A stretch of DNA of 64,000 bases from Pseudomonadota bacterium (GTDB lineage Bacteria; Bdellovibrionota_F; JAHFAK01; JBDREC01). The notes beneath the pieces are model-generated. The model did no database searches. It saw nothing but the letters and a program-made list of their open reading frames with translations, and was not told where the DNA came from. Location of the stretch: NCBI GenBank assembly GCA_043820105.1, contig JBDREC010000095.1, forward strand, positions 28,898-92,897, given 5' to 3'. Position numbers and translations under genes: made by a program. How positions within the stretch are numbered: the first letter of the stretch is position 1; every line of letters starts with the position of its first letter. This document shows positions 1,682-63,739 of the stretch, one piece after another.

Positions 1682-3241
1682 ATGCCTTATAACATAATAA
1701 ATCCTGATACAGCATATAAAATTCAAATGATAGCGGTTATTCTTTGCACACTGGTTTTATTTACAAAAATATTTTTTTCTAAAATCAAAACAACAAATTA
1801 TAAATTTGCTCTAATTAAAAAAGTGTTAAATAGTTTAATCGTTATATTTGTTTTGTTTATGTCTATAAACTATTTCTATATTTCAAGAGCCAGCGAACAT
1901 TATATTCATAGATGGGATATGTATCACACTGTTATTGGATCAAAATACTTCAATGAACTTGGTTATACAAAGCTATATGAATGCACTTTATTTTATAATG
2001 AAAAAACCCTTCATTTTTTTACGCCTCCCGCAAGAGCAAGAAATTTATTAACTTTAAATTATGAGACCACCAAAAAACTTTTAAAAAAAAGCAATTGCAA
2101 TTCTATCTTTTCACAAGAGCGTCAAAAGGAATTTATAAATGATTTAAAAACATTCAATGATATTACATATCCAGAGTTTTGGAAAGAAATATTCTTAGAC
2201 AAGGGCTATAATGGCTCGCCATTTTACACCTTTCTAATCTCAAATATTACTAACGTTGTACCAATAAGTTATAATTCCTTATTGGCCTTATCTTGTATAG
2301 ATATTGTCCTTGTTTTAATTGCCTTTACATTTGTGCTTTGGGCCTTTGGATATAAAATGGCTCTTTTATCTTTTATATTTTTCACGCTCAACTTCCCCAA
2401 CAGATATGTTCATATGGGAGCATCAATATTACGTTTTGATTATATTGCTTATACAATAATTGCTTTATGTCTTTATCGAAAAAACAAATTCAAAACATCA
2501 GCCTTTTTATTGGCCCTTGCCTCTGTCATAAGAATGTTTCCTGTTTTATTTGCCTTAGGTTTTATTATCAAAGCCTTAATGGAATTTTCAAAAACAAAAA
2601 AAATCAAAATAAAATATTTAAATTTCATCCTATCATTTATAATCTCACTAGCTTTGCTTCTTGGGGCTTCGCTTACTTTTGGACCAGGAGTTAAAGCCTG
2701 GCAAAAGTTCTTTACAAACATGAAAATTCATAACCAACAAAGTGCGGGCTTTAGAATTGGTTTTAAAAATCTTTTCATGTTTAAGGGTGAAATAACAAAG
2801 AAAGACCGTTTTGTTTCTTATCAAAAAAAGGCCAATGCCTTTGCAAAAGTAAAAGTCTATTTTTATATATGTTTTGCTATCTTTTTGATCCTGGCTTTTA
2901 TGATTATGAATAAATTAGAAGACCTTGATGCTTCAATTTTGTTTGGGGTTTTTACTTTTTATCTCTACTTCTGTTCAACACGATATTATTACTCAATTCT
3001 TGTTCTCTTAATCCTATTTCTCTACAAATATAGAAACGAACTATTCTCACAAGTCTCAACTCTACTTCTATTTCTAATATCTGCGATCGCTTTTGTGGCA
3101 AACTACTACAACAACTTTGATCCTTTCATATATAATTATCTTTTATCTTTCATGCTTTTGGTCTATTTCTTATATCTAATTATATTCTTAATACTTAAGT
3201 TTAAAGTTTGGAGGTTTTTGAATCCTAAAATTAATTATTAA
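1682..3241 (+). CDS. polytopic integral membrane protein, tandem paralog 2
   Basis: 519-aa ORF 21 nt downstream of paralog 1. Carries SKYFNELGYTKLYE and LDKGYNGSPFY motifs and many TM helices. Its stop codon lies inside the AATTATT heptamer array. Confidence 0.6.
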   Translation: MPYNIINPDTAYKIQMIAVILCTLVLFTKIFFSKIKTTNYKFALIKKVLNSLIVIFVLFMSINYFYISRASEHYIHRWDMYHTVIGSKYFNELGYTKLYECTLFYNEKTLHFFTPPARARNLLTLNYETTKKLLKKSNCNSIFSQERQKEFINDLKTFNDITYPEFWKEIFLDKGYNGSPFYTFLISNITNVVPISYNSLLALSCIDIVLVLIAFTFVLWAFGYKMALLSFIFFTLNFPNRYVHMGASILRFDYIAYTIIALCLYRKNKFKTSAFLLALASVIRMFPVLFALGFIIKALMEFSKTKKIKIKYLNFILSFIISLALLLGASLTFGPGVKAWQKFFTNMKIHNQQSAGFRIGFKNLFMFKGEITKKDRFVSYQKKANAFAKVKVYFYICFAIFLILAFMIMNKLEDLDASILFGVFTFYLYFCSTRYYYSILVLLILFLYKYRNELFSQVSTLLLFLISAIAFVANYYNNFDPFIYNYLLSFMLLVYFLYLIIFLILKFKVWRFLNPKINY

Positions 3242-3324
3242 TTGTTAATTGTTAATTATTGATTATTTTAGGACTCAATTCCAATTTCCAACAATCAACA
3301 ATCAATTTTCAATTCTCAATTATT
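3233..3324. repeat. 7-nt-phased AT-only repeat element forming an imperfect hairpin between convergent genes
   Basis: Left arm is AATTATT AATTGTT AATTGTT AATTATT GATTATT (3233-3267). Right arm is CAATTCC AATTTCC AACAATC AACAATC AATTTTC AATTCTC AATTATT (3276-3324). The 26-nt core 3296-3321 is identical to 12618-12643. Confidence 0.85.
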
Positions 3325-3773
3325 GGATCAAAACCATTTTGTCGAATGGATTCATATACCACAATACCAACAGCATTAGCCAAATTCAAAGATCTAACAT
3401 TTGAACTAATCGGAATCTTAAAAAATCTCTCAGGAAATTTACTAAACAAATAATCAGGCAAACCAATTGTTTCGCAACCAAAGATAAGATAGCTTTCTTT
3501 TGGATAAGAAACTTCAGTGTAAACTTTTTTGGCTTTCTTGCTAAAGAAAAATAAATATTTATCAGGCACACGATCAACGATTTCTTCAATTGTTTCAACA
3601 CTGGTCAGCTTTAGATCTTTCCAATAATCAAGCCCTGCTCTTCGAACAGCCTTGTCGTCAATAGAAAAACCTAGTTTGCCAACCAAAAAAAGTCTGCTAT
3701 TTGTTGCAACCGAAAGTCTGGCTATATTGCCTGTATTTTGTGGGATTTCGGGGCTTAGGAGAACTATGTTCAA
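3309..3773 (-). CDS. trmL: tRNA (cytidine/uridine-2'-O)-methyltransferase TrmL (SpoU family)
   Basis: 154 aa. MNIVLLSPEIPQNTGNIARL...RRAGLDYW...SLNLANAVGIVVYE is collinear with E. coli TrmL/YibK as I recall it. Confidence 0.9.
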   Translation of the reverse strand: MNIVLLSPEIPQNTGNIARLSVATNSRLFLVGKLGFSIDDKAVRRAGLDYWKDLKLTSVETIEEIVDRVPDKYLFFFSKKAKKVYTEVSYPKESYLIFGCETIGLPDYLFSKFPERFFKIPISSNVRSLNLANAVGIVVYESIRQNGFDPIIEN

Positions 3774-3819
3774 ATTACTTCCTCTTATTTTAATATTAAT
3801 TGTTAATTAAGGGCAACCA

Positions 3820-4812
3820 CTAAACATGCAATTCAATACAATCTTCATCCTCAAGCACATAATCCTTATTCACCCTCTGCCCATCATATTTTCCTTCACC
3901 CCAAATGCAGGCAAACTTCATTTTATCAACAAATTCTTTGTGAACAGATTTTGCAAAGTCTAGAAGTGTTGATCCTCTTTTGAAAATAAATGGCTGACTT
4001 CTATCTGGTTTTTTCCCACGAGCTTTTGAATAAACTCTTACAATGTTCATAAGTTCAAATATCCTTCTTGGAATTGTACCAATTGTTTTTTCATCCAAAA
4101 AACTTACAGGATAAAGATCAAAATCTTTGCCCAACTCTTTTTCGAAAAGTTCGAAAATTACTTCATCTGGATCAAGATCCATTTTAGTTATAAATATAAT
4201 AGTTTTTTTATATGCAAGGGAAAGCGAGGTTTCTTCAGGTTCATTTTTTCCAAAAAGAATCATCTTCTTTTCTTTTAAAAGCTCTTTGCACTTTTCAAAG
4301 TCACCTAAAGTATCTGTTGCTCCCATATCTAAAAACAAAATTACAATATCAGAATTCCTAATATTATTAAAAACCCAATATTCGCAATATTCATCAGACA
4401 AAGGGGGAAGATCAATAAGTTGAAACTGCACATTTTCAAATTGCAGCATTCCAGCAAGTGGCGCTCTGGTTGTAAAAGCAAATTCAGCGATTTCAGGAGA
4501 AGCGTTTGTAGATAAATCAACAAAGCTAGATTTTCCTGAGTTGGGTAAGCCAACGAGAGCAATTTGGGCTGCCCCTTCTTTTTTAATATGAAACTTAGCA
4601 TCAGAACCTGAACTTTTGCCAGATGATTTTTCACTTTGGTTTTTGAACTTAGAAAGCTTTTTCCTAAGATCTGCTTGCATTTTATCAGTTCCCTTATGCT
4701 TAGGAATCACAGCAAGCATGTGTTCAAGGGCCGCAATCTTTTCTTCATTAGTAGCTGCTTTTTTAAATGCTTCTTCTGCTTGTTTGTAAATTGGGGTTAG
4801 GTTTGCTGGCAT
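3820..4812 (-). CDS. DRG/Rbg-type (COG1163-like) GTPase with C-terminal TGS domain
   Basis: 330 aa. G1 is GLPNSGKSS and G4 is TKMD. The C-terminal TGS-like segment RVYSKARGKKPD...WGEGKYDGQRVNKDYVLEDEDCIELH and the N-terminal helical region resemble eukaryotic/archaeal DRG. G3 reads DLPP instead of DxxG. Confidence 0.75.
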   Translation of the reverse strand: MPANLTPIYKQAEEAFKKAATNEEKIAALEHMLAVIPKHKGTDKMQADLRKKLSKFKNQSEKSSGKSSGSDAKFHIKKEGAAQIALVGLPNSGKSSFVDLSTNASPEIAEFAFTTRAPLAGMLQFENVQFQLIDLPPLSDEYCEYWVFNNIRNSDIVILFLDMGATDTLGDFEKCKELLKEKKMILFGKNEPEETSLSLAYKKTIIFITKMDLDPDEVIFELFEKELGKDFDLYPVSFLDEKTIGTIPRRIFELMNIVRVYSKARGKKPDRSQPFIFKRGSTLLDFAKSVHKEFVDKMKFACIWGEGKYDGQRVNKDYVLEDEDCIELHV

Positions 4813-4821
4813 AATAAAATT

Positions 4822-4860
4822 AATTCAAAATTAAAAATTCAAGATTCAAAATTACAATTG
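4822..4860. repeat. AATTCAA-type 7-nt-phased repeat array
   Basis: AATTCAA AATTAAA AATTCAA GATTCAA AATTACA ATTG. 33 of the first 34 nt equal the reverse complement of 63701-63739. Confidence 0.85.
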
Positions 4861-4884: not shown

Positions 4885-5249
4885 CCATTAGTAAAATTGT
4901 AATTAAAAATTCTATTATTTGATAACATTACTTTTGTGATTAAATCAATGAAAAAAATTAGATTACTCTCTGACTCAAAATTTATTTCTCCTTGCAGGGC
5001 CTCAGATTCGAAGCTTTCTAAGTCTCCACATCCGATATAGAGCGTTTGAACAATTATTAATAAAAATGTAAGGAAAAATTATATTAAAAAAGAATTCGGA
5101 TCAAATTCAGGTTCAAATTTGAAATTATTTATAAATATTCAACTGGCCACAACTTTTGCAGAAATTTACTGGCTTTAATGATCTCAATATTTCCAACTTT
5201 CTTTTCTCTTTTTAGGTTAAGAACAACCTGGCAAGCTGTTAATTTATAT

Positions 5250-5618
5250 TTATCCTGAAAAGATTATTTTTATTTCTTCAAGGTAGAGTTTAAAAATTTC
5301 TAAATATTCACTTTCTTCTAAACCAAAATAATCATGAGTGCCAATGTTCCTAGCTTCAATAAACCTAAACCACAACTTAACTTCTGAAATTTTTCCAATC
5401 TTAGCTGCTTTTCTAATTGCCTCTTTGGGAGAAGGTGCCTCTAACCCTTCATCTTCTACAATTTTTTTTAATTCTTTCCATGCATATTCTATAGAAATTT
5501 CAAAGGTTTTTGCTAAAGCTAAAAAAGCAAAATGACTCTCATTGCCATCTTTTTTGCTTTCGTAGAACTTAAATGCATTTTTAAAATCTACAATAGATTC
5601 ATTAAATTTATTATTCAT
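5250..5618 (-). CDS. HEPN-domain protein (HI0074-family nucleotidyltransferase substrate-binding protein), toxin of a HEPN/MNT pair
   Basis: 122 aa with an R-x4-H motif (RNIGTH) near the C-terminus. Sits 1 nt downstream of the MNT gene. Confidence 0.8.
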   Translation of the reverse strand: MNNKFNESIVDFKNAFKFYESKKDGNESHFAFLALAKTFEISIEYAWKELKKIVEDEGLEAPSPKEAIRKAAKIGKISEVKLWFRFIEARNIGTHDYFGLEESEYLEIFKLYLEEIKIIFSG

Positions 5619-5619
5619 A

Positions 5620-6192
5620 TTATTTTCCTTCTTTTAATTGGGCAATTTTTAGCAAAAACCTCTTAAAAGCCATTTTTTTTCCTTTTAGAAAAGTTATTGA
5701 TTCATCTAGCTCTTTTATAAACCAGTCAGGTGCTGCATCTAAATTAATAAGATCAATTTCAATTTCCAAATTATCTGCTAAATCACCTACTATAGATTTC
5801 ATGTCTAAAAAAGTTATTCCATTTATTTTCTTTTCATTTGATAAAACTCCCAAGTCGCAATCAGAATATCTAGTAGATGTTCCCTTTGCTCTTGATCCTA
5901 ATAGTACGATACTCGTGTCAGGAAATTTTTTCAATAATTCGTCAATTATTAAACTAATCCCAAATTCTTCAAGTGTTATCTTTGCTTCACTTTCATCAAT
6001 AAGCTCAAAGGGACTAACATTTAAGGATTTTGCTATAGCTAAGAACTGATCACTAAATATCTTCTTTTTTCCTGTTAAATAATCATAAATAGTATTTCGA
6101 TGAATTTTTGTGCGTTTAGAGAATTGAGAAATAGAAAGAAAGCCGAGTCTAATTAACTGTATTCGGAATTTTTTTTCGTTGAATGTATACAT
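5620..6192 (-). CDS. XRE-type HTH fused to a minimal nucleotidyltransferase (MNT), antitoxin of the HEPN/MNT pair
   Basis: GSRAKGTSTRYSDCDLGV matches the G-S-x(9-13)-D-x-D NTase motif. The N-terminal ISQFSKRTKIHRNTIYDYLTG segment is HTH-like. The ORF-track start at 6252 adds an implausible hydrophobic 20-aa extension that overlaps the candidate operator, so ATG 6192 is preferred. Confidence 0.75.
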   Translation of the reverse strand: MYTFNEKKFRIQLIRLGFLSISQFSKRTKIHRNTIYDYLTGKKKIFSDQFLAIAKSLNVSPFELIDESEAKITLEEFGISLIIDELLKKFPDTSIVLLGSRAKGTSTRYSDCDLGVLSNEKKINGITFLDMKSIVGDLADNLEIEIDLINLDAAPDWFIKELDESITFLKGKKMAFKRFLLKIAQLKEGK

Positions 6193-6236
6193 AACAATAA
6201 TAATAGCATACCAGATCAAATATTGCAATATATTAT

Positions 6237-6264
6237 TGTACAGCATGTACACAAAACAAGTACA
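6237..6264 (-). promoter_or_regulatory. candidate operator of the HTH-MNT/HEPN operon (TGTACA repeats)
   Basis: TGTACAGCATGTACA (6237-6251) plus a third GTACA at 6260-6264, 45-70 nt upstream of ATG 6192. On the minus strand it lies between TTGTTT and TAATAT hexamers. Confidence 0.35.
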
Positions 6265-6399
6265 TCACAAATTGACATATTAAAATCATTATTCTTTTTA
6301 ATATAATTTTTTTTACATCTTTAGCAAAGAAAGAGTCTTTTTAAAATAATCACTAAAGTTAACAACATGTTTTCATATCTCTTTTTACGGTTCTTTGTT

Positions 6400-6415
6400 T
6401 GGCACAATTCTTGTA
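6400..6415 (+). promoter_or_regulatory. near-consensus sigma-54 promoter upstream of the toxin gene
   Basis: TGGCAC-AATTC-TTGTA. The -24 element and spacing are perfect. The -12 element has GT instead of the conserved GC. Located 40 nt upstream of ATG 6455. Confidence 0.3.
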
Positions 6416-6454
6416 ATTAATATTTGCAGGTTATTACTTATGGGAAGAGACATT

Positions 6455-9400
6455 ATGAAAAAGCAAAATATTATTGTACTATTTTCTTCAATTTTAATCT
6501 TAATCATAATTTTAAATCATAATCTAAGAGCTCAAGATGCTTGCACTGATTTACAAACATATAGATCCTCATTTGTTGTAGATTCATCAGAAAAATATGA
6601 CAAATGGAATATGGGTGCATTAAGTGAAATGATTTCTGAACCTGGTTTAATTGATAAATGGAGGAGCTGGTCATATGAAACATGGTGGGGAACAGATCAC
6701 ACTTCTGGTGGAAACAGATATGATGATGTGATTTCTCCTGCATGTAGAATTATGCTAGCCAAGGTTGCTACTGCTGAAATGGATAAATATATTTCCCTTC
6801 AAGAAGCCTTTTGCCAAGATGGAAGCACTCAGAAACATAGATGTGAAGGCGAAGCTGAGCTTAAAAAAATTAAGACACAGCAAGCAAAACTAAAAGCCCA
6901 AACTAATAAAATGGCCCAAGTAATAAGCTCACAATTCGGAAGCCTCCCTCCAATGGTTCAAAAAAGTAATACTGATTCAAATGGAAATGCTGCTAAATAT
7001 TATGACTTTGATTGCTCAAATTCAAGATGGTGCTCAAAACAACAATCTGGTGTTAACACCGCTGCTGAAACAGTTACAAGCTCAAGACAAGAAATTAATC
7101 ATAATAATAATCAAGTTCTAGAACAAATGCAAAGATCAAGTTCAAGCTCAAGAACTTGTCCCAATGAAGCTGTTATAGAATTAAGCAATGAAATCCTTAA
7201 TGATATTCCTTATACTCCAAGCAAAGAAAAAAAGCATTTTAGAGACCTTTGCAAGCAAGATCCTATTGGTCCACAAATACAAAGTTATGGTTATAAAATG
7301 TCATATGATCCTGATGGCGATTTGGCGGCAACAGGAAGCTCCTTATTGGGGGCTGTTTCAGAACTTGGGGGAATTTATGGTAAAGCTGCAAGAATAGCAG
7401 GTTTTGACACTCATATTGATTCAATAAACACTGGACAAAAAAGGTCCACCTTAACTTCATTTAAAGAAACACTAATGAAAAACCAATGGGCATATATGAA
7501 TACTGAAGAAAGAAATGCTGCTCAATCGACATTAGAAAAAAGTGGTCTTTCAGGGGATGAAAGTTTATCAATGACGGCACCATATGTTGGAGACAATAAA
7601 AGAGGAACAGCGAATCATATGTCATATTTTAAAGATTTATCAAAACTTGACCCTTCAAAACCAGATGATTTTATTCCTTATATGTCATCATCTTTATTTA
7701 AAAAACATATAGCAGATAAGGCTGATAATGGTGAAAAATGGATCCCTGAAGCAGCAAAACTTTGTATTATCTTAGATAAAGAAGAAAACATTGATGAAAT
7801 GGGTAAAATGGCAAGAGAAATGGTCCTTGGAACAGTAATTTCAGGAATCCTAATGTCAGCAACAGCAGCCTCGCGCGGATCAAGCTATGCAACAACAACA
7901 GCAATTGGCATTGGTGTAGATTCCTCTATCTTTGCCAAATCTTATATGACTGCAAGGTCTGACTATAGGGAGGCACTAGAAAAAAGACACCTAGTTGGTG
8001 ATGAACATATTGAGGAAATGAGACAACGATTGGAAAATGCAGAAAGTGAAGCTCTCTGGGGAATGGGATTTTCAATTGCAATAAATGGTATTACTGGAGG
8101 TGGCGGAGCAATGTTTACCCAAAACATGGGAAGAAGCTTAATAAAAAATGTTAGTGGAGAATTCACAGAAAAAGGCGCAAAAGCAGCTGAAGACTATTTA
8201 AGAAATGAATTAAAAAGGAGTCTTTGGGGAAAAGAACTAATAGGAGCAATGAAAAAGTTTTTAAATGAGGCCGGCACTGGCGCAATAGGAAAATTAAAGA
8301 AAAGTCTTGTTAAATATTTGAAGAAAAAAGGAATACCAACAGATCAAGCAGAAGAAGTTTTTAACATCATAGTAAAAGTGCTAAAAGATGAAGCAGAAGA
8401 AGGTCTTGAACTGGCTTCAAAAGCTAGCACAGCGCAAACAAGTTCAAGAGCAAGCGCTACGATGTCAAGACCAGCTATCCAGGGAGCTGCTCATGAGCTT
8501 ACCACTAAAAATATCGATGATTTGGCGAGTGCCCGAATGGCAAGATCTGTTTATCCAGTAAGAGAAGTTTTTGAAAATGCTAGCTTAGGACAAAAAGAAA
8601 GATTAGCAAGAGCAGCAGCTGATTTAGGAATGAATAAATTTTCAAGAAAACAAAGCGCTGCTTTAATCGCAGCTCATAATATTGGTTCAAATGAATCAGA
8701 ATCAGTTTTTCGATATACATCAAAACAACTAAGTGAAAAATTAAATATATTAAAAAATGGAGGCTTTACTTTAAAAGAAGCAAAAATGCTAATGCAAAAA
8801 GGTTATGCAGGAAGTCTTGGAACTCAAAATAAAATTGTAGATCTTGGGGGAGGACTTAAAATAAATACTAAAAAAGTAGATAAGCATTATAGTTACACAC
8901 TTAAAAATCCAAAAATAGTAGGAAAAAGAGAACATAAGCTAATAAAAGCAGCTATTTTAGAAAAAGCAAGACAGGCATTTGATTCAACTGTAATCGCTGA
9001 TTCATCAGAAATGGCTTTAAGAAAAGGCTTTTTAAAGCAAGTAGACAATTCCGTAGATAAAATGTTTAGTGCTGGCAGATTATCATTTAATTCAATTGAT
9101 GAATTTTCTAAAAAAAGAAAAATATTATGGAATATGTATAAAGATCAACACTCCAAAGCTCTTAAAAAAAGAAAAAGTAGAGTTAAAATTATTGATGTTA
9201 AACATTTCCCAGCAAGTTCAAATCAAACAGGTTCTCAGGCTATAAAAAAAATAGCTAGCTCTAAGGATAATTTAGAACTTGTATTAAAAAAACGATACGA
9301 TGATGCAGTTAGGTATGCTGACGAGAATTGGGAAGAGATATTTGATGACCTTGAACTAGACCTCAAAGGCAAACCCCAAACTAAGCAAAAAGCTAATGAA

Positions 9401-9973
9401 CTTGGTTTATCTAAACATGAGCTAACGGCATTAATGTTATACACTGGATCTAATTTTGAAGATATTAATGGAGCATTAAGAAAAGAAATTAGAACGCAAG
9501 CACCATCCATAACAATGCTACTTGGAAAATCTAAAGAAGAATTAAAAGCATTAAGAACATTAGTTAGCTCAGCATTAAGAAAAATGCCAAGCCAAGAAGG
9601 TCAAGTTTTTAGAGGTCAAAATTACAGAAGAGAATTGATAGAAACCCTTAAACCTGGAGATCTCATGAAAGATCCAGGATACTTCTCAGCATCTACTTCA
9701 TATGATGTAGCTCAAGAATGGTCACAACAATATAAATTGTATAAGCACCCTCAACCAGTCGTATTTAAAATTGACCACAAAGGTGGAAAAAATATTACTG
9801 ATTTTTCATTCAATCCTACTGAAGACGAAGTACTGTTTAGAGACTCTACCGCTTTTAAAGTTTTATCTATTGATAAAAGCGGGAATCCGTGGATAATACA
9901 TATTGAGGAAATTATTAACAACAAACAGAGGCAATTGGCTAATTGGTTTAAGTTATTTGAAGAGGCCGCTTAA
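6455..9973 (+). CDS. secreted multidomain toxin with C-terminal R-S-E ADP-ribosyltransferase (C3/VIP2-like) domain
   Basis: Signal peptide MKKQNIIVLFSSILILIIILNHNLRA/QD. Cys-rich N-terminal region and two hydrophobic/Gly-rich stretches. C-terminal motifs are YTGSNFEDINGALR, VFRGQ, FSASTSY and TEDEVLF. The ORF-track start at 6395 is probably too far upstream (RBS GGGAAGAGA precedes 6455). Confidence 0.85.
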   Translation: MKKQNIIVLFSSILILIIILNHNLRAQDACTDLQTYRSSFVVDSSEKYDKWNMGALSEMISEPGLIDKWRSWSYETWWGTDHTSGGNRYDDVISPACRIMLAKVATAEMDKYISLQEAFCQDGSTQKHRCEGEAELKKIKTQQAKLKAQTNKMAQVISSQFGSLPPMVQKSNTDSNGNAAKYYDFDCSNSRWCSKQQSGVNTAAETVTSSRQEINHNNNQVLEQMQRSSSSSRTCPNEAVIELSNEILNDIPYTPSKEKKHFRDLCKQDPIGPQIQSYGYKMSYDPDGDLAATGSSLLGAVSELGGIYGKAARIAGFDTHIDSINTGQKRSTLTSFKETLMKNQWAYMNTEERNAAQSTLEKSGLSGDESLSMTAPYVGDNKRGTANHMSYFKDLSKLDPSKPDDFIPYMSSSLFKKHIADKADNGEKWIPEAAKLCIILDKEENIDEMGKMAREMVLGTVISGILMSATAASRGSSYATTTAIGIGVDSSIFAKSYMTARSDYREALEKRHLVGDEHIEEMRQRLENAESEALWGMGFSIAINGITGGGGAMFTQNMGRSLIKNVSGEFTEKGAKAAEDYLRNELKRSLWGKELIGAMKKFLNEAGTGAIGKLKKSLVKYLKKKGIPTDQAEEVFNIIVKVLKDEAEEGLELASKASTAQTSSRASATMSRPAIQGAAHELTTKNIDDLASARMARSVYPVREVFENASLGQKERLARAAADLGMNKFSRKQSAALIAAHNIGSNESESVFRYTSKQLSEKLNILKNGGFTLKEAKMLMQKGYAGSLGTQNKIVDLGGGLKINTKKVDKHYSYTLKNPKIVGKREHKLIKAAILEKARQAFDSTVIADSSEMALRKGFLKQVDNSVDKMFSAGRLSFNSIDEFSKKRKILWNMYKDQHSKALKKRKSRVKIIDVKHFPASSNQTGSQAIKKIASSKDNLELVLKKRYDDAVRYADENWEEIFDDLELDLKGKPQTKQKANELGLSKHELTALMLYTGSNFEDINGALRKEIRTQAPSITMLLGKSKEELKALRTLVSSALRKMPSQEGQVFRGQNYRRELIETLKPGDLMKDPGYFSASTSYDVAQEWSQQYKLYKHPQPVVFKIDHKGGKNITDFSFNPTEDEVLFRDSTAFKVLSIDKSGNPWIIHIEEIINNKQRQLANWFKLFEEAA

Positions 9974-10285: not shown

Positions 10286-10495
10286 TTGCAGTCAAAGGAA
10301 CATGAAATTGATTTTGTAACTTCTGATAATGAATTAATTGAAGTAAAATCGGAAAAGGCTTCTCCAATGGATTTCACATGGTTTAATATAGTTTTTCCTA
10401 ATAAAAGATTAACCGTTATTTGCAAAACACCATTTGAAACTGATACTATCAAAGGAATAACTATTGAAGATTTTTTATTAGATGATGAAAAATAA
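10286..10495 (+). pseudogene. C-terminal remnant of a DUF4143-type AAA+ ATPase gene
   Basis: HEIDFVTSDNELIEVKSEKAS parallels REVDFVVLRNKKPLFAIECKSKNR at the C-terminus of the intact ATPase (12643..13785). No N-terminal P-loop part is present upstream. Confidence 0.5.
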
Positions 10496-10532: not shown

Positions 10533-11270
10533 ATGGATATAAAAAAAATAATAAAAGAATATAAATCTGGAAAAATTTCTGAAGAGGCTTGTTTAAAAAA
10601 GCTTAAGGACCTTCCCTATTCTGATCTTGGTTTTGCAAAAATTGATCATCATAGAAAGCATAGAAAGGGAAACTCTGAAGTTATTTATGCTGAAGGCAAA
10701 ACAGCTGATCAAATAATTGCCATTACAAAACAAATGCAATCAACTGGTGAAAATATTTTGGCAACTCGAGTGAGCTCTGAAATATTTGAAGCTGTTTCAA
10801 AAGAAATCAAAAATCTTGAATATAATGAAATAGCAAGGACCTTTACTTATATAAAAACTAAGAAAAGAAAAAAAGGCAATGTTTCTGTAATATGTGCTGG
10901 CACTACAGATTTGCCAGTGGCTTATGAAGCCTGCGTTACAGCTGAATTTTTAGGAAGCAAAGTAACACGGCTTTTTGATGTAGGAGTAGCTGGAATTCAC
11001 AGACTCATTATGAATAAAGTTGTAATTGATAAAGCAAAAGCTTTAATCGTTGTAGCTGGAATGGATGGGGCCTTACCTTCTGTTGTTGGAGGACTTGCAA
11101 AAGTTCCTTTAATAGCCGTTCCAACAAGTGTTGGATATGGAGCAAGCTTTAATGGCGTTGCACCTTTATTAACAATGCTAAACTGCTGCTCACCTGGTGT
11201 AGCTGTTGTTAATATTGATAATGGTTTTGGCGCTGGATATATGGCGCATATGATTAATAGTGGTAAGTAG
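10533..11270 (+). CDS. larB: LarB, pyridinium-3,5-biscarboxylic acid mononucleotide synthase (PurE/AIR-carboxylase-like)
   Basis: 245 aa. Has an N-terminal helical segment, then a PurE-like core (VSVICAGTTDLPVA...VVAGMDGALPSVVGG...VPTSVGYGA). Confidence 0.8.
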   Translation: MDIKKIIKEYKSGKISEEACLKKLKDLPYSDLGFAKIDHHRKHRKGNSEVIYAEGKTADQIIAITKQMQSTGENILATRVSSEIFEAVSKEIKNLEYNEIARTFTYIKTKKRKKGNVSVICAGTTDLPVAYEACVTAEFLGSKVTRLFDVGVAGIHRLIMNKVVIDKAKALIVVAGMDGALPSVVGGLAKVPLIAVPTSVGYGASFNGVAPLLTMLNCCSPGVAVVNIDNGFGAGYMAHMINSGK

Positions 11271-13988: not shown

Positions 13989-14566
13989 GTGTGGCATGAA
14001 AATTGGTGCACATCTAAACAAAGTGGCAGAAATAGTAATGAAGAAATAACACAAAGAGCAATTGATGATAATAATAAAAGATATGATGAATTTGAAACAC
14101 AAATAGCCATTCAAGAACATGATAAAATATGCAACCCAAATGCTCTTTCTGACCTTGAGTCCTGGATGATGCTTTTTCAGCAGTAATAGGTTCTTTTAAA
14201 AAATCAAATCCTGACAATAGCTCTCAAATGCTAGCAAGCACCTCATCAAGAAGTGCTGCACATAGTATTGGAATAGGGAACATGGACAATATTGCAACTT
14301 CAAGAATTGCCAGGTCTTCGGTTCCTGTTGAAAAGGTGATGGCAAATGCTGCCCTTGATGAGGCCGACAGGCTAGCTTCCGCTGCAGCTCATATTGGAAA
14401 GAAAAGGCTTTCACAAAAGCAAAGCGCAGCCCTAATAGCTTCTCATCAAGTTGGAGCTGATGAAGGTGGATCAGTTTTTAGATATACCCAAAAGCAGCTT
14501 CAAGAAAAGTATAGGATTTTGACAGATGGCGATTTTACTCATAAAGAAGCAAGGGAAAAAACATAG
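13989..14566 (+). pseudogene. frame-broken, shortened paralog of the toxin gene (N-terminal piece plus conserved helical module)
   Basis: ORF 14228..14566 aligns with toxin residues encoded at about 8415-8815, with roughly 48 of 88 positions identical by eye. ORF 13989..14186 weakly resembles the toxin N-terminal WxExW...C region. The pieces are in different frames, and there is no signal peptide or ART domain. Confidence 0.6.
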
Positions 14567-15109: not shown

Positions 15110-15784
15110 ATGGCACGAGTATATTTACATAACGCTAATGAACTACCCTTTCGTTCAATTCGCGAAGAGTTATTAAACTCTCTTATCCATGGTATAGGTC
15201 TAGCTTTAAGCATAGTTGGGCTTTGCATTCTTTTAATGATAGCATCAGATAGAGGCACTTCATGGCATCTTGTAAGCTGCGGAATCTTTTCTTCAGCTTT
15301 AGTTATGCTTTATTTATCATCAACCCTTTATCATGGTTTTCAATCAGGTCTAGCTAAAAAGGCTTTTAGAAAACTTGATCATTTTAGTATTTATATTTTG
15401 ATTGCTGGATCCTACACACCGTTTGCTTTAACTATTTTAAAAGATAATTATGGCCTTTATCTATTTTATACTCAATGGGGGCTTGCTTTTATTGGAATTA
15501 TGTTTAAGTTCTTTTTTGGATATAGATATGATTTTCCATGCACGATTGCTTATGCAATAATGGGCTGGGCTGCTCTATTTTTAATAAAACCATTAATGGA
15601 AGGTCTTCCAGGTTTTGGATTTTTGTGGCTTTTAACAGGTGGCCTTTTATATACTTTTGGAATTCCCTTTTACTTTAAAGATAAAAAAGCCCCCTATTTT
15701 CATGCAATTTGGCATATTTTTGTGCTTTTAGGTTCTGCTTGTCACTTCTTTGCTGTGCTGTTTTATGTTATTCCAACAAGCTAG
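15110..15784 (+). CDS. hemolysin III / PAQR family membrane protein
   Basis: 224 aa with seven hydrophobic helices. LYLSSTLYH, FSIYILIAGSYTPF and HAIWHIFVL are typical of the HlyIII/YplQ family. Confidence 0.85.
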   Translation: MARVYLHNANELPFRSIREELLNSLIHGIGLALSIVGLCILLMIASDRGTSWHLVSCGIFSSALVMLYLSSTLYHGFQSGLAKKAFRKLDHFSIYILIAGSYTPFALTILKDNYGLYLFYTQWGLAFIGIMFKFFFGYRYDFPCTIAYAIMGWAALFLIKPLMEGLPGFGFLWLLTGGLLYTFGIPFYFKDKKAPYFHAIWHIFVLLGSACHFFAVLFYVIPTS

Positions 15785-30900: not shown

Positions 30901-31872
30901 TTATATTGAAGTTTCTGAATATGAAGTTGCCATAACAGCTGCATCAAATACTACAACAGCTTTTGTATATTGGCCTGATCTAATATAGGCTTGGCCTGTT
31001 TGAATAAGTTGTTTTATGTCGTTTTTATCATCCTGTGAACATCTCATGTAATGAACATAGTGAACTGCTTCAGCACAATATTTTTCAATTCCACCAATCG
31101 CCATTTGAAAATCAACACTTAAGTAGTTTTGTCTAAATCCACCCCTTGCAAGTGAAGATGCAATCCAAATTCTCATTCTGGCTTCTTCAGCTGCCTGACT
31201 TAGAGTAACATTTGCACCGTATCCAAGCATTGGTTCATAATAATATGCATTAGCAGTATTTACAAAATCGATTCCAAAGTTAAGCCTTACTTGATTTCTG
31301 TAAGGATGATTTTGCCAATGAGGAACTGGTCTGGACATTTCACAAATTGAATTTCCAGCTGAACATTGTCTCCACCTATTCTGAAATGACATATCAAAGT
31401 TAAACCTTGAATAAGGACCAGGAGCTCCAAATCCACCATTTCCATACCACATAGGATTAAATGTACTATGGTAAAAATTACCCATTCCAAGTCCTAAGTT
31501 TAAGTTAAACTTTGGTGTGTTTAAATTAAAGTTAAAATTGAGACCTGGTCTTATGTTGTACATGCTTGAATATAATGACCATGGATATTGTTCAGGAATC
31601 CAATTTGGTCTTGGCATCATTGTAGACCTATTGTTATAAAATGTACTCCATTGATTCCAAGGTCTAGTCCTATAATATTCATAAGGTGCCCTTGGTCTGA
31701 CTACTGGAGGAGGTGTGCATTTATTTCTTGCATACCTTTGTTGTGTATTATAGTTATTACCATATGCACCATATGGAGTATTCTGAGGATAATAACCTCT
31801 TTGATTCTTACATCCGCTAAGAACAAATGTTGCAATTAAAACGGAAACTAATAATAATAAAATATTTTTCAC
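30901..31872 (-). CDS. lipoprotein, N/Y/W/P-rich, unknown function
   Basis: 323 aa. Lipobox in MKNILLLLVSVLIATFVLSGC. The central region is rich in Asn, Tyr, Trp, Pro and Phe (NFNFNLNTPKFNLNLGLGMGNF). A sigma-54 promoter lies upstream. Confidence 0.6.
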   Translation of the reverse strand: MKNILLLLVSVLIATFVLSGCKNQRGYYPQNTPYGAYGNNYNTQQRYARNKCTPPPVVRPRAPYEYYRTRPWNQWSTFYNNRSTMMPRPNWIPEQYPWSLYSSMYNIRPGLNFNFNLNTPKFNLNLGLGMGNFYHSTFNPMWYGNGGFGAPGPYSRFNFDMSFQNRWRQCSAGNSICEMSRPVPHWQNHPYRNQVRLNFGIDFVNTANAYYYEPMLGYGANVTLSQAAEEARMRIWIASSLARGGFRQNYLSVDFQMAIGGIEKYCAEAVHYVHYMRCSQDDKNDIKQLIQTGQAYIRSGQYTKAVVVFDAAVMATSYSETSI

Positions 31873-32078: not shown

Positions 32079-32113
32079 CTTATGACTTACGACTTACGAC
32101 TTACCACTTACGA
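32079..32113. repeat. CTTACGA-type heptamer array overlapping the 3' end of the J-domain gene
   Basis: CTTATGA CTTACGA CTTACGA CTTACCA CTTACGA. Positions 32086-32104 are the reverse complement of 11270-11288. It encodes the C-terminal residues VVSGKS plus the stop of the minus-strand gene. A (TA)6 run lies at 32053-32064. Confidence 0.9.
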
Positions 32114-32537
32114 CCTCTTCATAAGCCTTTTGAATCTCAATGGTTTTTTCTTTTGCAAAGTCTTGCAACTCAATTCCAAGATGTGCAACCTTATCCGGAT
32201 GGTATTCTGACATTTTTTGATAATATGCTTTTTTGATTTCTTCTTTGTTACACCCTTTTTTTATTTCAAGAATTTCATAAGGATCTTTTAAAGAAAAATT
32301 ACTTCCAAAGGAATTGCCAGATGAGGACTGCTGGCTATGCCTTTGATATTCTTGATATATTTTACGGTAGATCCATTTTGAAGCAAACTTTTTATAAAAA
32401 GAATACCCCAAAACAGCTACTAATACATCGTCTAGTCGACCTAATAGGGGATGCATAAAATCTGGAAGCAAATCCAAAGGAAGAAAAAAATATAAAAGCA
32501 CTATTGTTATTATTAAATATTTTACAAAAACAGTCAT
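32094..32537 (-). CDS. membrane protein with DUF1232 (YkvA-like) N-terminus and C-terminal J domain
   Basis: 147 aa. LDLLPDFMHPLLGRLDDVLVA is DUF1232-like. DPYEILEIKKGCNKEEIKKAYYQKMSEYHPDK is a J domain with HPD. Confidence 0.75.
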   Translation of the reverse strand: MTVFVKYLIITIVLLYFFLPLDLLPDFMHPLLGRLDDVLVAVLGYSFYKKFASKWIYRKIYQEYQRHSQQSSSGNSFGSNFSLKDPYEILEIKKGCNKEEIKKAYYQKMSEYHPDKVAHLGIELQDFAKEKTIEIQKAYEEVVSGKS

Positions 32538-53838: not shown

Positions 53839-54276
53839 TTATAAACCAAAGTCAGACAGAGCCTCTGCATTAAAACTAGTTTTTAGTTTTTCAAATTCCT
53901 CGCTCCATTTTTCCTTTGCCCAGATTTCAATGGTCCGTACTTGACCCATCAAAACAACGTCTTTAGAAAGGTCCGCGTATTCCCTTAAGTTTTGCGGAAG
54001 CAAAATCCTGCCACTTTTATCAATAGGACATTCTACAGCACCTGAAATAAAAAATCTTTTCAAGTAGGTAACTCTTTTGTCGAATTGAGGCATTTCGGCC
54101 ACTTTTCTTTCTAAATCCCTCCATGCTTGTAAAGGATATGCTACCAAGCAAGGGTCGAAATGATTCGTTATGACCAAATGTTCAGAAAAGCGCTCATCAA
54201 GCACATCCCTAAATTTAGACGGAATACTAATTCTGCCCTTTGAATCAATAGAATGTTCGTAACGACCTTTAAACAT
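53839..54276 (-). CDS. mraZ: transcriptional regulator MraZ
   Basis: 145 aa. MFKGRYEHSIDSKGRISIPSKFR and a second DKSGRILLP SpoVT/AbrB-like repeat. Confidence 0.95.
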   Translation of the reverse strand: MFKGRYEHSIDSKGRISIPSKFRDVLDERFSEHLVITNHFDPCLVAYPLQAWRDLERKVAEMPQFDKRVTYLKRFFISGAVECPIDKSGRILLPQNLREYADLSKDVVLMGQVRTIEIWAKEKWSEEFEKLKTSFNAEALSDFGL

Positions 54277-57597: not shown

Positions 57598-58817
57598 ATC
57601 CTCCCTTCTAAGCTAGAAAAAGCGGCTGTTTCAGGGCTAACTAAATAAATTTCTCCCATACCCTGTTTGCCTTTAAAATTTCTATTTGAAGTTGACAGAG
57701 CAACTTCTTTTTCTCCTGTCATGCCAATTTGTCCGGATGCACAGCCACCACAACCTGGATTGCTTACAATGCAACCTGCATCAATTAAATCATTCATGAT
57801 CCCTTCTTTTAAAATTTTAGAAAAGACAGCTGCAGTTGATGGAACTATTTTAACCATTACAGATTCTGCCACATGATGGCCTTTAATGATTTGAGCAAAG
57901 CTTTTTATATCTTCATAACGACCATTAGTACAGGATCCTAGAAAAACCGAATCAATTCTTACAGAATCTCCACTTGCAACATCAACAACATCCGCAGGTG
58001 ATCCTGGTAAAGACATTTGAGGTTTTAGATTAGATATGTCAATATTTAGCTCTTTGACATATTCAGCGTCAGCTGCGGCTTTGATATCATTTAAATTAAA
58101 TTTCTTATTAGAAAATTTATTCATAATTTCTTGATTGGGCACAATAAATCCGATGATTCCTGCCATTTCTGTAACCATAGAACACAGAGTTATTCTTTCA
58201 GAAAGATTAAAGGAATCTAAAACATCTCCGTAAAATTCAATAGCAAGGCCAAGCCCACCGCTTGATCCAAGGTGTTTTAAAACATATAAAGTAATATCCT
58301 TTGCTGAAACATTTTCAGGTCTTTTCCCTGTAATATTTATTCTCATGCTTTTGGGAACTTGAAACCATGTTTTTCCTGATTTAAAAATATAAGCGATATC
58401 TACGTCCCCCATCCCTTGACCAAAGGCTCCAATAGCACCCAAAATATTTAAGTGACTGTCAGTCCCAACAACTGTAGATCCTGGATAGGCTATCTGTTCA
58501 TCTATCATAACATGAGAACCAATCCCTGCATCAACATCATAAAGTTTAATATTATTTTTCTTTGCAAATAACCTTACTTTATGTTGATTATTCGCATATT
58601 GAATACTGTTAGCCGGAACACAGCAGTCAAAGGTAAAAAAGGTCTTTGAAATGTCATCAAGTTTTGTTTCTCCATATTCAGCTTCATAGTTTTTTATAAC
58701 ATTTGGACCACCGAAGTCCCGAGCGCTTCTGACATCAATATCCATCCATACAATATCTGGATTATAGTCTTTTGTATGTTTGGCTATTATTTTTTCAATC
58801 ATTGTTTTTGGTTTCAT
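57585..58817 (-). CDS. leuC: aconitase-family hydro-lyase large subunit (3-isopropylmalate dehydratase LeuC-like, short archaeal-type)
   Basis: 410 aa. GTDSHLN, GSCTNGR and CGGCASGQ are the Fe-S ligand regions. Confidence 0.75.
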   Translation of the reverse strand: MKPKTMIEKIIAKHTKDYNPDIVWMDIDVRSARDFGGPNVIKNYEAEYGETKLDDISKTFFTFDCCVPANSIQYANNQHKVRLFAKKNNIKLYDVDAGIGSHVMIDEQIAYPGSTVVGTDSHLNILGAIGAFGQGMGDVDIAYIFKSGKTWFQVPKSMRINITGKRPENVSAKDITLYVLKHLGSSGGLGLAIEFYGDVLDSFNLSERITLCSMVTEMAGIIGFIVPNQEIMNKFSNKKFNLNDIKAAADAEYVKELNIDISNLKPQMSLPGSPADVVDVASGDSVRIDSVFLGSCTNGRYEDIKSFAQIIKGHHVAESVMVKIVPSTAAVFSKILKEGIMNDLIDAGCIVSNPGCGGCASGQIGMTGEKEVALSTSNRNFKGKQGMGEIYLVSPETAAFSSLEGRICTK

Positions 58818-61549: not shown

Positions 61550-62329
61550 CTAGCCTTTCTTTTTCTTCTTTCTTTTGGCAAGAGAAATAGTTTCATTAAA
61601 ATTCTTTTTTTCATCAGGATGAACTGAACTTGCATTAATTTTCTCAATAGTCATCTCTGTTTGACCAATTTTAATAACATCTCCAGCTTGCAATACTTTG
61701 TGTGTAATTAGTTCTCCATTGACAAAAGTTCCATTAGTACTTTCTAGATCATTGATAACTGGCCTTCCAAAAGTATCAATCATCAAATCAGCGTGCCTTT
61801 TTGAAATGCTATTATCACTAAGAACTAAATCAATAATGGAATTTCTTGAATATCGCCCGATGCTTACTCCACGTTCATTAATAATAATCGAGGTCCCCTC
61901 ATCCACACCCTTTGTAACCTTAATGCGAAAAAAGAACTCCTCCTCTTCGTCTTTTTCACCTCTTATTCTATGAAAAACATCATTCACTTGTTTTTCTTCA
62001 AGTTGCTCTTTTTGAGAATCTTTATCTGTGGAGTCAACTAGAGATACAATTTCCCTATCTCTAATCAGTTTCTCAACTTCTAGTGAAGGGAGCATTTTCA
62101 AATTAATAAAATATCCAGATATAAATTCAAGATCCGAAACATAGGATGTATCTTCATCATCGGCAATTCCTACAAGCAATGTTTCGCCAAAGCTTCCCAT
62201 CTTTAGTTCAAGAGGATAGGCTTTAAGTTTTTTACTTTTTAAATAATCTATTATTGCATTTATTTTTTCATTCATAGTGGACATAGATTTAATAAAATTT
62301 TTTCGTTTGTCCATAAAAATATTAAACAA
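61550..62329 (-). CDS. FHA-domain protein with N-terminal T2SSE_N-like region
   Basis: 259 aa. The C-terminal VSIGRYSRNSIIDLVLSDNSISKRHADL...STNGTFVNGELI segment is an FHA domain. Confidence 0.75.
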   Translation of the reverse strand: MFNIFMDKRKNFIKSMSTMNEKINAIIDYLKSKKLKAYPLELKMGSFGETLLVGIADDEDTSYVSDLEFISGYFINLKMLPSLEVEKLIRDREIVSLVDSTDKDSQKEQLEEKQVNDVFHRIRGEKDEEEEFFFRIKVTKGVDEGTSIIINERGVSIGRYSRNSIIDLVLSDNSISKRHADLMIDTFGRPVINDLESTNGTFVNGELITHKVLQAGDVIKIGQTEMTIEKINASSVHPDEKKNFNETISLAKRKKKKKG

Positions 62330-62384
62330 ATCATCTGTTTGACAATTAATATTTTAATTATTATTAGATTGAAACATCTAATTA

Positions 62385-62412
62385 AGTTGCAGGTTGCTAG
62401 TTGCTTGTGCTT
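62385..62412. repeat. AGTTGCA/GGTTGCT heptamer array
   Basis: AGTTGCA GGTTGCT AGTTGCT TGTGCTT. It shares 14 nt with 32922-32942. Confidence 0.8.
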
Positions 62413-62463
62413 TTTATACTAGTAAATAAAACATACAGCATACCACTTATTTAAAAGGAGAAA

Positions 62464-63666
62464 ATGATGAATTCAAAAGAAACAATTGATATTACAGAAA
62501 AATATAGTGCCCATAACTACCACCCCCTTCCTATTGTTATCGCAAGAGCTGAAGGTATTTGGGTTTGGGATCCAGAGGGTAACAAATATCTGGATATGCT
62601 CTCTGCATATTCTGCAGTTTCACATGGTCACAGACACCCGAGAATCATTAAGGCCTTAAAAGATCAAGCGGATAAAGTTACCCTTGCAAGCAGAGCTTTC
62701 CATACAGAGACTTTTGGACCTTTCGCTAAAATGCTATGTGAACTTTGTGACATGGAAATGGTCCTTCCCATGAACACTGGAGCTGAAGCCGTAGAAACAG
62801 CAATCAAGGCTGCCAGAAAATGGGGATATTTGAAAAAGCATGTGCAATCAGACAAAGCTGAAATCATTGTCTGTGAAGGCAATTTCCATGGAAGAACAAC
62901 TACAGTCGTTTCATTTTCCTCTGATAAACAATACAAAGAAGGCTTCGGACCTTTTACTCCTGGATTTAAAATAATTCCTTATGGTGATAGCCAGGCTCTG
63001 GAAAATGCAATTAATGAAAACACAGTAGCTTTCTTAGTTGAACCCATTCAAGGAGAAGCTGGAATAGTAATACCACCAGATGGTTACCTGACAAAGGCAC
63101 GTGAATTATGCACAAAAAACAATGTCTTATTAATGTGTGATGAAATTCAAACTGGCCTAGGTAGAACAGGTCGCGTATTTGCATCAGATCATGAAAATGT
63201 TAAACCTGATGTTTACATTTTGGGCAAAACCTTAGGTGGTGGGGTTTTCCCTGTTTCAGCTGTTGTTGCAAATAAAAATGTGTTAGATGTTTTTACGCCA
63301 GGAGATCATGGAAGTACATTTGGTGGAAATCCTCTGGGTTGCGCAGTAGCAATGGAAGCACTCTTAGTATTAAAGGAAGAACAACTAACAGCCAGATCAG
63401 AGGAAATGGGTAATTACCTAATGAATAAGCTAAATGAAATTGACTCTCCTTATGTTGATCACATTAGAGGCAAAGGTCTGTTTATTGGAGTAGTACTTAA
63501 AGAATCTGCAGGTGGCGCAAGAAGATTCTGTGAAGCCTTAAAAGAAGCTGGAATTCTTTGCAAAGAAACACATGAGAATGTAATTAGATTTGCTCCTCCT
63601 TTGATAATTGAAAAAGAAGATTTAGATACTGCAATTGAAAAAGTGAAAAAGGTTTTATCTGAATAA
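62464..63666 (+). CDS. rocD: ornithine--oxo-acid aminotransferase
   Basis: 400 aa. [34 protein letters not shown] and [11 protein letters not shown] match the class-III PLP aminotransferase OAT pattern. Confidence 0.85.
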
Positions 63667-63700
63667 TCTTATCCATTACCAAAACCTCATTAATTTTTTA

Positions 63701-63739
63701 AATCTTTAATTTTGAATCTTGAATTTTAAATTTTGAATT
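63701..63739. repeat. inverted copy of the AATTCAA-type heptamer array
   Basis: Its reverse complement, AATTCAAAATTTAAAATTCAAGATTCAAAATTAAAGATT, matches 4822-4860 at 33 of the first 34 nt. Confidence 0.85.

Follow-up and report, generated by a model that had tools for sequence, protein, structure and literature searches.

Heptanucleotide repeat arrays at the gene boundaries of a low-G+C uncultured bacterium, a new host for a known repeat class

The 64-kb window analysed here (contig JBDREC010000095.1 of assembly GCA_043820105.1, positions 28,898 to 92,897, forward strand) has a G+C content of about 32% and a coding fraction of 91.3% by its gene map, which leaves 8.7%, or 5.6 kb, of non-coding DNA. 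Its genes include larB and larC, hypB, a class-III aminotransferase gene and a dcw cluster, and its intergenic regions carry short tandem arrays of 7-nt units, here called heptamer arrays. A sequence-only reading of the window had described at least twelve arrays in strict 7-nt phase, and the observation is borne out. Tandem Repeats Finder (TRF) reports period-7 arrays at all of the claimed coordinates but 62385-62412, the units match the earlier description when the sequence is printed in 7-nt register, and a lag-p detector (+1 for a match, -2 for a mismatch, score of at least 12, runs of 1-3-nt units removed as low complexity) finds 12 period-7 arrays. Shuffling lowers the count to 0.07 for the whole window (second-order Markov) and to 0.01 when each intergenic segment is shuffled, so that in the 64-kb window period-7 arrays are enriched over shuffled intergenic sequence. 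At the same threshold the window holds no array at periods 4-6, 8-13 or 15-20, and apart from 7 itself a score is reached only by its multiples 14 and 21.

The arrays are 25-45 nt long (3-5.4 units) and total roughly 620 nt, about 11% of the non-coding DNA, with at least one array in 10 of the 24 intergenic regions of 40 nt or more. Eleven of the 12 (14 of 16 when the threshold is loosened) fall mainly in intergenic DNA and some overlap the last codons of genes, in agreement with the earlier description of arrays confined to gene boundaries; two weak period-7 matches inside genes, at 2362-2381 and 3136-3159, seem fortuitous. With the arrays masked, intergenic DNA retains no lag-7 signal (0.290 at lag 7 versus about 0.30 at other lags), indicating that the arrays are discrete elements and not the tip of a diffuse periodicity. 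The heptamer arrays are real and statistically overwhelming. An origin in chance, low-complexity AT-rich sequence or assembly artefact could appeal to the low G+C content and to the two flavours that are nearly pure A+T, but is effectively refuted by the 12 arrays against 0.01-0.07 expected, by the silence of every other period and by the flavours that contain G+C. Assembly error is unlikely because the arrays, at 25-45 nt, are shorter than a typical read and have unique flanks, and because similar arrays occur in finished chromosomes such as NZ_CP179930.1 and NZ_CP169244.1. The positions and units of the arrays are collected in Table 1.

Table 1. Heptamer arrays and hairpin composites of the window, with the heptad sites of one relative in the last row
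Feature	Positions	Strand	Units and context	Seen by
AT-rich composite, copy 1	3228-3324	.	left arm (AATTATT/AATTGTT)x5, loop, right arm (CAACAAT/CAATTYT)x5	TRF and register view
AT-rich composite, copy 2	12542-12645	.	orientation as copy 1; between convergent stops 12524 (+) and 12643 (-)	
larB-larC intercistronic heptad hairpin	11259-11340	+	left arm (NGTAAGT)x4, right arm (CTTACGA-type)x5	TRF and register view
Two-flavour composite	20012-20081	+	(ACGCCGT ACGCTGT)x2, 7-nt loop, (CTTACAG/CTTACCA)x5	TRF, period 14, 100% matches
AATTCAA array	4816-4860	-	consensus AATTCAA on +, equal to TTTTGAA-type on -	TRF and register view
Inverted AATTCAA copy	63701-63739	.	consensus TTTTGAA, superperiod 14	TRF
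(CTTACCA)x3.7	15010-15035	+	perfect; in the 166-nt spacer upstream of HlyIII-family gene 15110..15784	TRF, 100% matches
(CTTAYGA/CTTACCA)x5	32078-32113	.	read on the + strand; equal to GTAAGTN on -	TRF and register view
Inverted ACGCCGT/ACGCTGT array	32541-32575	-		TRF and register view
(GGTTGCT AGTTGCT)-type array	32922-32949	+	within the hypB upstream module	TRF
(CTTACCA/CTTATCG)x4.7	32989-33021	+	followed directly by Shine-Dalgarno sequence GGAGG; hypB ATG at 33039	
Weak three-unit array AGTTGCA GGTTGCT AGTTGCT	62385-62412	+	divergent spacer upstream of the aminotransferase gene	
Heptad sites of the FtsA relative L125	4752-4782, 9892-9920, 11236-11290			

Five sequence flavours had been distinguished among the arrays, which proves to be an overcount; when rotation, reverse complement and single substitutions are allowed for, the units fall into the three families GTAMGYY/CTTACNN, AT-rich AATTNTT and RGTTGCT. 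With rotation and reverse complement allowed, CTTACAG and ACGCTGT differ at 1 position, as do AATTGTT and AACAATC and likewise AATTCAA and AATTTTC, and for GTAAGTC and CTTACGA the complementarity is exact. Only 3.8% of random heptamer pairs of the same composition come within a distance of 1. The window holds six CTTACNN/GTAAGNN, two ACGCYGT, four AT-rich and two RGTTGCT sites. In the CTTACNN arrays at 15011-15035, 20047-20081, 32079-32113 and 32990-33021 and in the right arm of the larB-larC hairpin (11311-11340), the G-poor strand is always the plus strand of the window, whatever the gene orientation, and the plus strand is the C-rich strand by GC skew across the window. This may reflect a replication-strand bias, in a sample too small to carry the point (two-sided P about 0.06).

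Four of the loci pair into long imperfect hairpins with z scores of -3.5 to -5.0 or better, as had been proposed. Two of these are AT-rich composites of about 100 nt that align end to end through arm, loop and arm, with BLAST segments 88-92% identical and the identical 26-mer CAACAATCAATTTTCAATTCTCAATT, already claimed by the sequence-only reading, at 3296-3321 and 12618-12643. The first copy has its place between the convergent stops 3241 (+) and 3309 (-), and open reading frame (ORF) 1682..3241 takes its final codons and stop (INY*) from the AATTATT units of the array; the minus-strand RNA of this copy folds at -23.0 kcal/mol with z -4.0, against z -1.2 for the plus strand. In the second copy the phase is broken across the loop, and the minus-strand fold reaches -24.1 kcal/mol with z -3.5. 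The third hairpin fills the spacer between the genes identified by Pfam as AIRC (LarB-like) and Ni_insertion (LarC), with the last codons and stop of LarB (SGK*) encoded by its left arm, and folds at -30.4 kcal/mol (z -5.0) on the plus strand and -38.8 kcal/mol (z -7.4) on the minus strand. At the fourth, 20012-20081, the flavour had been said to change without a break in phase. The units are as described, and the change is better read as the meeting of two partly complementary hairpin arms, since CTTACAG units on one side pair with ACGCYGT units on the other as imperfect reverse complements; the hairpin reaches -23.3 kcal/mol (z -3.6), and a Shine-Dalgarno (SD) sequence AAGAGG and an ATG at 20096 follow. 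Mismatches recur every 7 or 14 nt in the hairpin stems. All four hairpins, the two AT-rich elements by a wide margin, fold to a lower energy on the minus strand, which is G+T-rich, irrespective of how the genes are oriented. This strand asymmetry was considered as a sign of RNA function and rejected, because the minus strand is also favoured at larB-larC and at 20005-20095, which are flanked by plus-strand genes; the asymmetry tracks G+T skew rather than transcription.

The remaining arrays are predicted to be single-stranded (z of 0 or higher; minimum free energy of 0 kcal/mol for (CUUACCA)3.7), and several of them adjoin the starts or ends of genes. A gap of 3 nt separates the array at 4816-4860 (fold z +1.0, unstructured by prediction) from the downstream ATG of the TGS/GTPase gene 3820..4812(-), and the array at 32541-32575 stops at the same distance upstream of the ATG (32537) of a DnaJ/DUF1232 gene, 32094..32537(-), whose last six codons and stop (VVSGKS*) are overlapped by the array at 32078-32113. 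The array at 15010-15035 contains no G and shares its 3' boundary CTTAAAC with the array at 20047. Three genes end inside an array, namely those for LarB and the DnaJ/DUF1232 protein, both with SGK* from GTAAGT units, and ORF 1682..3241. The arrays at 4816, 32541, 20047 and 32989 end 3-17 nt from a start codon, and among the nine arrays that border a start, five end within 17 nt of it versus 2.4 expected (P = 0.02). The inverted copy at 63701-63739 is placed between two convergent stops, that of the aminotransferase gene (62464..63666, +) and, at about 63738-63740, that of a minus-strand ORF which leaves the window. A position upstream of a gene was considered for it and rejected, as the ORF that begins with the ATG at 63749 is no longer than 28 aa and the true neighbour is convergent.

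Distant arrays also resemble one another in the order of their unit variants. The two inverted pairs noticed earlier are borne out by alignment: 4816-4854 and 63707-63745 are identical at 37 of 39 positions with the same GATTCAA variant in both, and 20012-20041 and 32543-32572 at 28 of 30 with the same C/T alternation. Between the array at 32078-32113 and the left arm of the larB-larC hairpin (11259-11288), taken in inverted orientation, identity reaches 93%. The regions upstream of hypB (32860-33045) and of the class-III aminotransferase gene (62330-62470) form a paralogous leader module composed of TTAGATTGNGAAACA, (RGTTGCW)3, CTTACCA-type units and an SD sequence, with a local alignment score of 76.5 versus 41.8 +/- 6.8 (maximum 65.5) in shuffles. 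The number of CTTACCA units differs between them, with about 4.7 in the hypB leader and about 1.9 (CATACCACTTATT, before the SD sequence) in the aminotransferase leader, and the module may be a common operator or leader of two otherwise unrelated genes. The three units at 62385-62412, listed earlier as an array in their own right, fall below both detectors and are credible only as part of this module, as the paralogue of 32922-32949. TRF further finds a perfect 14-nt superperiod (ACGCCGTACGCTGT)2 at 20012-20041 and superperiods of 14 nt in the AT-rich arrays 12544-12581 and 63696-63739. As distant arrays share the order of their unit variants, slippage in place is not the whole story, and arrays have also been copied between sites or held alike by selection. 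On these alignments several arrays appear to be copies of larger dispersed modules and not independent expansions.

The near-identical composites at two loci each in equivalent contexts (the pairs of about 100 nt, 39 nt and 30 nt), together with the boundary CTTAAA(C/A) common to three CTTACNN arrays, raise the question of mobility. REPINs, the hairpin-forming doublets of repetitive extragenic palindromic (REP) sequences, are extragenic and palindromic, as the arrays of the window are, and the arrays could accordingly be pictured as non-autonomous mobile elements with heptad arms, of the kind of REPs and REPINs or of miniature inverted-repeat transposable elements (MITEs), spread by an enzyme encoded elsewhere. 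We regard this as distinctly improbable. Neither target-site duplications nor terminal inverted repeats are visible at the ends of the composite elements, and the 20 flanking window proteins annotated with Pfam include no transposase and no protein resembling a REP-associated tyrosine transposase (RAYT); the earlier statement that the window encodes no enzyme to generate the arrays agrees with the lack of a candidate among these 20 proteins. Mobility also accounts neither for the strict 7-nt substructure nor for the at least 112 flavours found across phyla (below).

Position and structure together suggest another possibility, a post-transcriptional regulatory network kept by selection. The hairpins, between cistrons or at 3' ends, would here be messenger RNA stabilisers or sites of processing or termination, and the single-stranded G-poor arrays beside SD sequences and start codons would be platforms for an RNA-binding protein with a footprint of about 7 nt (S1, Csp-type or similar) or would raise or lower translation; we consider a network of this kind rather unlikely. 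All four hairpins have z of -3.5 or lower, the one that fills the larB-larC spacer resembles the hairpins of short tandemly repeated repetitive (STRR) sequences between cyanobacterial hupS and hupL (PMC2670836), and the four arrays ending 3-17 nt from a start codon (P = 0.02-0.03) are unstructured by prediction. The TAACTGA repeats of BOGUAY hold the same position (PMC4679880), TTTTGAA-type heptamers upstream of Nostoc genes have effects on reporters (bioRxiv 10.1101/2022.06.06.494920), and one module is common to the hypB and aminotransferase leaders. Against such a network, none of the hairpins is followed by a U-tract and a terminator scan (stem plus U-tract) calls none of them, the antisense strand folds lower at larB-larC and 20005-20095, both flanked by co-directional genes, the stems carry periodic mismatches, and the orientation of the arrays relative to neighbouring genes is mixed.

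The distribution of such arrays in other genomes was surveyed by scanning 185,579 species-representative genomes with the pattern CTTACNNCTTACNNCTTACNNCTTAC (CTTACNNx3+CTTAC), which gave at least 119 loci comprising 821 kb. The listed loci belong to more than ten phyla and include Bacteroidota, Cyanobacteriota, Planctomycetota, Acidobacteriota, Chloroflexota, Patescibacteria, Gamma- and Betaproteobacteria, Nitrospirota, Campylobacterota, Verrucomicrobiota, Omnitrophota and others; the source lineage is not among the matches listed (tblastn, best 53% identity). Among these matches there are 252 period-7 arrays, against 27 of period 9, 22 of period 8 and 10 of period 6, and the 252 arrays represent 112 canonical flavours. 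When every CTTAC/GTAAG unit is removed, 133 arrays with different flavours remain, or about 10 per 64 kb, a density equal to that of the window, whereas 80 unselected control loci (distant LarC relatives on metagenome contigs, 585 kb) contain 10 period-7 arrays, about 1.1 per 64 kb. One heptamer array predicts many of unrelated sequence, across very different phyla, which indicates a cause at the level of the genome. Units without G or C are only marginally enriched in the other genomes (0.45 versus 0.36). A six-frame stop-to-stop ORF mask was tried on these genomes and rejected as too permissive to class arrays as coding or non-coding.

Viral contigs of IMG/VR chosen by the same pattern (L209-L288) contain 93 arrays of other flavours in 711 kb, or 8.4 per 64 kb, with for example 10 arrays in L224 and 7 in L269; either the phages share the heptamer-rich trait of their hosts or these contigs are proviral or host DNA. 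The patchiness of the trait across phyla, its presence in viral contigs, its independence of sequence and its mild enrichment near start codons make it compatible with a further explanation, in which heptamer richness would not be a passive by-product of slippage but the mark of one particular factor acting in trans, patchily distributed among phyla and perhaps spread by horizontal transfer, phages included. The factor might be a variant polymerase or repair enzyme moving in 7-nt steps, or a nucleic-acid-binding protein with a 7-nt reading register; we hold both the explanation and its candidates to be improbable.

The host of the window was placed by its proteins. FtsA (42874-44100, minus strand) is 70-73% identical to that of metagenome-assembled genomes (MAGs) of Desulfuromonadales and 'Deltaproteobacteria', with the nearest relatives reaching 86%, and HypB is at most 62% identical to any database entry, its nearest named matches being Deltaproteobacteria and Thermodesulfovibrionales MAGs. 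Because of these nearest relatives the genome is not cyanobacterial, as the sequence-only reading had concluded, and by the same protein comparisons it is not a sulfur-oxidising gammaproteobacterium either. A relative with 76% FtsA identity and 34% G+C (L125) carries a perfect (ACGGACG)x4.4 array directly before the SD sequence and ATG of mraY, inside the dcw operon, and degenerate heptads (ATGCTMG; GTGCTAN/ATCTGGN) fill its ftsQ-ftsA and ftsA-ftsZ spacers, which speaks for a property of the genome and not of one locus. Heptamer arrays are absent from the dcw cluster of the window itself and from the 17-21 kb, mostly dcw operon, of relatives with 75% and 71% FtsA identity, and the relative at 86% lies on a 3.9-kb contig without an informative spacer.

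Some other features of the window are recorded here in their own right. A 15-mer, AAAAATTATATTAAA, occurs in three exact and three one-mismatch copies versus 0.42 expected (5074-5088(+), 6297-6311(-), 13892-13906(-), 10382-10396(-), 58545-58559(-) and 62288-62302(-)); it is not heptameric, is preceded by ATGTAA(R)(R) at 5074, 6297 and 13892, and may be a promoter or operator motif. Among intergenic tandem repeats with periods other than 7 and its multiples, the strongest is T-rich, with a period of about 10/20 nt (TTTTCATATTTTTCATGTTT), at 54480-54527; it lies roughly 200 nt upstream of ORF 53839..54276(-), which had been taken as mraZ, and could be an operator-like direct repeat. The sigma-54 -24/-12 consensus TGGCAC-N5-TTGCW has two exact matches, 28864-28879(-) and 31923-31938(-), the latter upstream of ORF 30901..31872(-); at one mismatch or fewer there are 5 matches versus 1.8 expected, not clearly above chance. 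The 1192-aa ORF 6395-9973(+) is hydrophobic, judged by eye, in an N-terminal segment and carries at its C terminus a toxin domain of the ADP-ribosyltransferase type (Pfam ART, ADPrib_exo_Tox), and ORF 14228..14566(+), followed by a small ORF at 14569-14943(+), resembles a paralogous fragment of its middle; the layout of 6395-9973 and 14228-14943 resembles a polymorphic-toxin locus with an orphan cassette. At 5250-6252(-) a HepT-like/NTase_sub_bind protein adjoins a helix-turn-helix nucleotidyltransferase (MNT-type), likely a HEPN/MNT toxin-antitoxin pair. An Rfam scan of the window returns tRNA-Pro only.

Repeats of this kind have a history. In the work of Mrazek et al. 2007, as it is cited in PMC4679880 and PMC4692102, heptameric units are over-represented among the long simple-sequence repeats (SSRs) of many bacteria, and the proposed cause is that the polymerase slips across a contact about 7 nt in length. 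The sequence-only reading had associated heptamer arrays with heterocystous cyanobacteria and large sulfur bacteria; the arrays of the window are of the same kind, but the limitation to those hosts falls with the clusters found in more than ten phyla. Cyanobacterial STRR sequences are 7-bp repeats of several families, and their hairpins between hupS and hupL have been suggested to act in transcript stabilisation or translational coupling (PMC2670836). Like them, the arrays of the window consist of tandem 7-nt units of several families, dispersed between genes, with inverted arrays that form intercistronic hairpins (PMC2670836; PMC4692102). Unlike them, they occur in a host that is no cyanobacterium, they are short, and the window contains no tandem dimer of CCCCAGT, TTGGTCA or CAACAGT in any rotation on either strand; tandem TTGGTCA-type units, the classical cyanobacterial STRR2, appear in two unselected metagenome loci (L194:19111-20723 and L205:12581-12612). 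The TAACTGA repeats of marine Beggiatoaceae are present in 2-6 copies and are intergenic, unstructured and adjoin start codons (MacGregor 2015, PMC4679880), and TAACTGA direct repeats also occur in some Cyanobacteria and Bacteroidetes (PMC4679880). The window arrays share the intergenic position, the few copies and the predicted lack of structure, and several of them lie close to a start codon, but where that system has one dominant heptamer, with related heptamers rarely repeated, at least three families coexist in the window and a third of its loci are inverted hairpin pairs; tandem TAACTGA is absent from the window, which has seven single copies.

The heptameric SSRs of Xanthomonas (GGGAATC) and Nostoc (GGGGAYT) likewise show an intergenic excess of period 7, inverted pairs and a proposed origin by slippage (PMC4692102). 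Length and sequence vary between related species in those systems, and the Xanthomonas GGGAATC repeats in particular form inverted pairs that are variable between related species (PMC4692102). The well-studied members are G-rich and quadruplex-capable, unlike the AT-rich or G-poor units of the window. In Nostoc, TTTTGAA/TTCAAAA heptamers upstream of start codons have reporter effects (bioRxiv 10.1101/2022.06.06.494920); TTTTGAA is also the TRF consensus of the window array 63696-63739, and exact tandem dimers of TTTTGAA/TTCAAAA are absent from the window. REP, REPIN and bacterial interspersed mosaic (BIME) elements are similar in being extragenic hairpins whose copies resemble one another, scattered over gene 3' ends and the spaces between convergent genes, and the window has this trait in its two composites of about 100 nt between convergent genes and its two intercistronic hairpins; they differ in that REPs lack tandem heptad substructure and are tied to RAYT transposases, of which there is none among the 20 annotated window proteins. 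The window belongs to the broad class of heptanucleotide SSR/STRR repeats by its 7-nt unit, dispersed families, intergenic location and hairpin-forming inverted pairs, and it falls outside the strict STRR (Mazel et al. 1990) and TAACTGA definitions on host and unit sequence. It is a new host for a known, still unexplained repeat class.

The explanation that we favour as the probable one combines slipped-strand growth and copying between sites with purifying selection that keeps the arrays out of reading frames, and some arrays may have been co-opted. A process governed by the length of the unit and not by its sequence would first amplify 7-nt seeds, and 14-nt double units, probably through slipped-strand mispairing or tandem duplication in replication or repair. 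Specificity for period without specificity for sequence is seen because period 7 alone scores, three unrelated families coexist in the window and at least 112 flavours occur elsewhere. Local action is supported by the 14-nt superperiods, by the paralogous leaders with differing unit counts and by the periodic stem mismatches, which would arise because each arm amplifies its own unit variant after the inverted pair has formed. Whole arrays, some with their flanks or as inverted pairs, would then be copied to other intergenic sites, as the near-identical pairs demonstrate, with recombination, template switching or other mobilisation as candidate routes. Since seven is no multiple of three, arrays are barred from reading frames and survive only outside them or right at the 3' terminus of a gene, whose final codons and stop they can then provide; this is the distribution observed. 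Most arrays would probably be neutral or nearly so. Some may have been co-opted, the inverted pairs as intercistronic or 3'-end RNA hairpins, as proposed for the STRRs between hupS and hupL, and the G-poor unstructured arrays beside SD sequences and start codons as leaders with a part in translational modulation or protein binding.

Several points weigh against this combination. Slippage alone leaves the preference for 7 nt over 5, 8 or 10 unexplained, and it accounts neither for the inverted arrangements nor for the near-identical distant arrays. Among the seven arrays that are free to move, three end within 17 nt of a start codon versus 0.83 expected at random placement in the same spacers (P = 0.03), and this proximity hints at selection, although it is suggestive only. 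The searched collections contain no close relative of the lar or hyp loci (LarC at most 46%, in metagenome contigs; HypB at most 62%), and in the sole pair of independent assemblies of a relative, 99.98% identical, the one array compared has the same copy number.

The alternative posed by the sequence-only reading, an independent occurrence or a shared mechanism, is an old and general question and not one particular to this window. Why bacterial intergenic repeats prefer units of 7 bases, and what arrays of the STRR type do, has been asked since 1990. To the known hosts the window adds a low-G+C uncultured lineage resembling deltaproteobacteria, and it provides clean examples of coexisting unit families, of heptad hairpins that record growth in place and of arrays copied between sites. 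The co-occurrence of flavours across phyla supports a cause at the level of the genome. If that cause were a trans-acting factor, the arrays beside start codons and between cistrons would be a genuine layer of post-transcriptional regulation.

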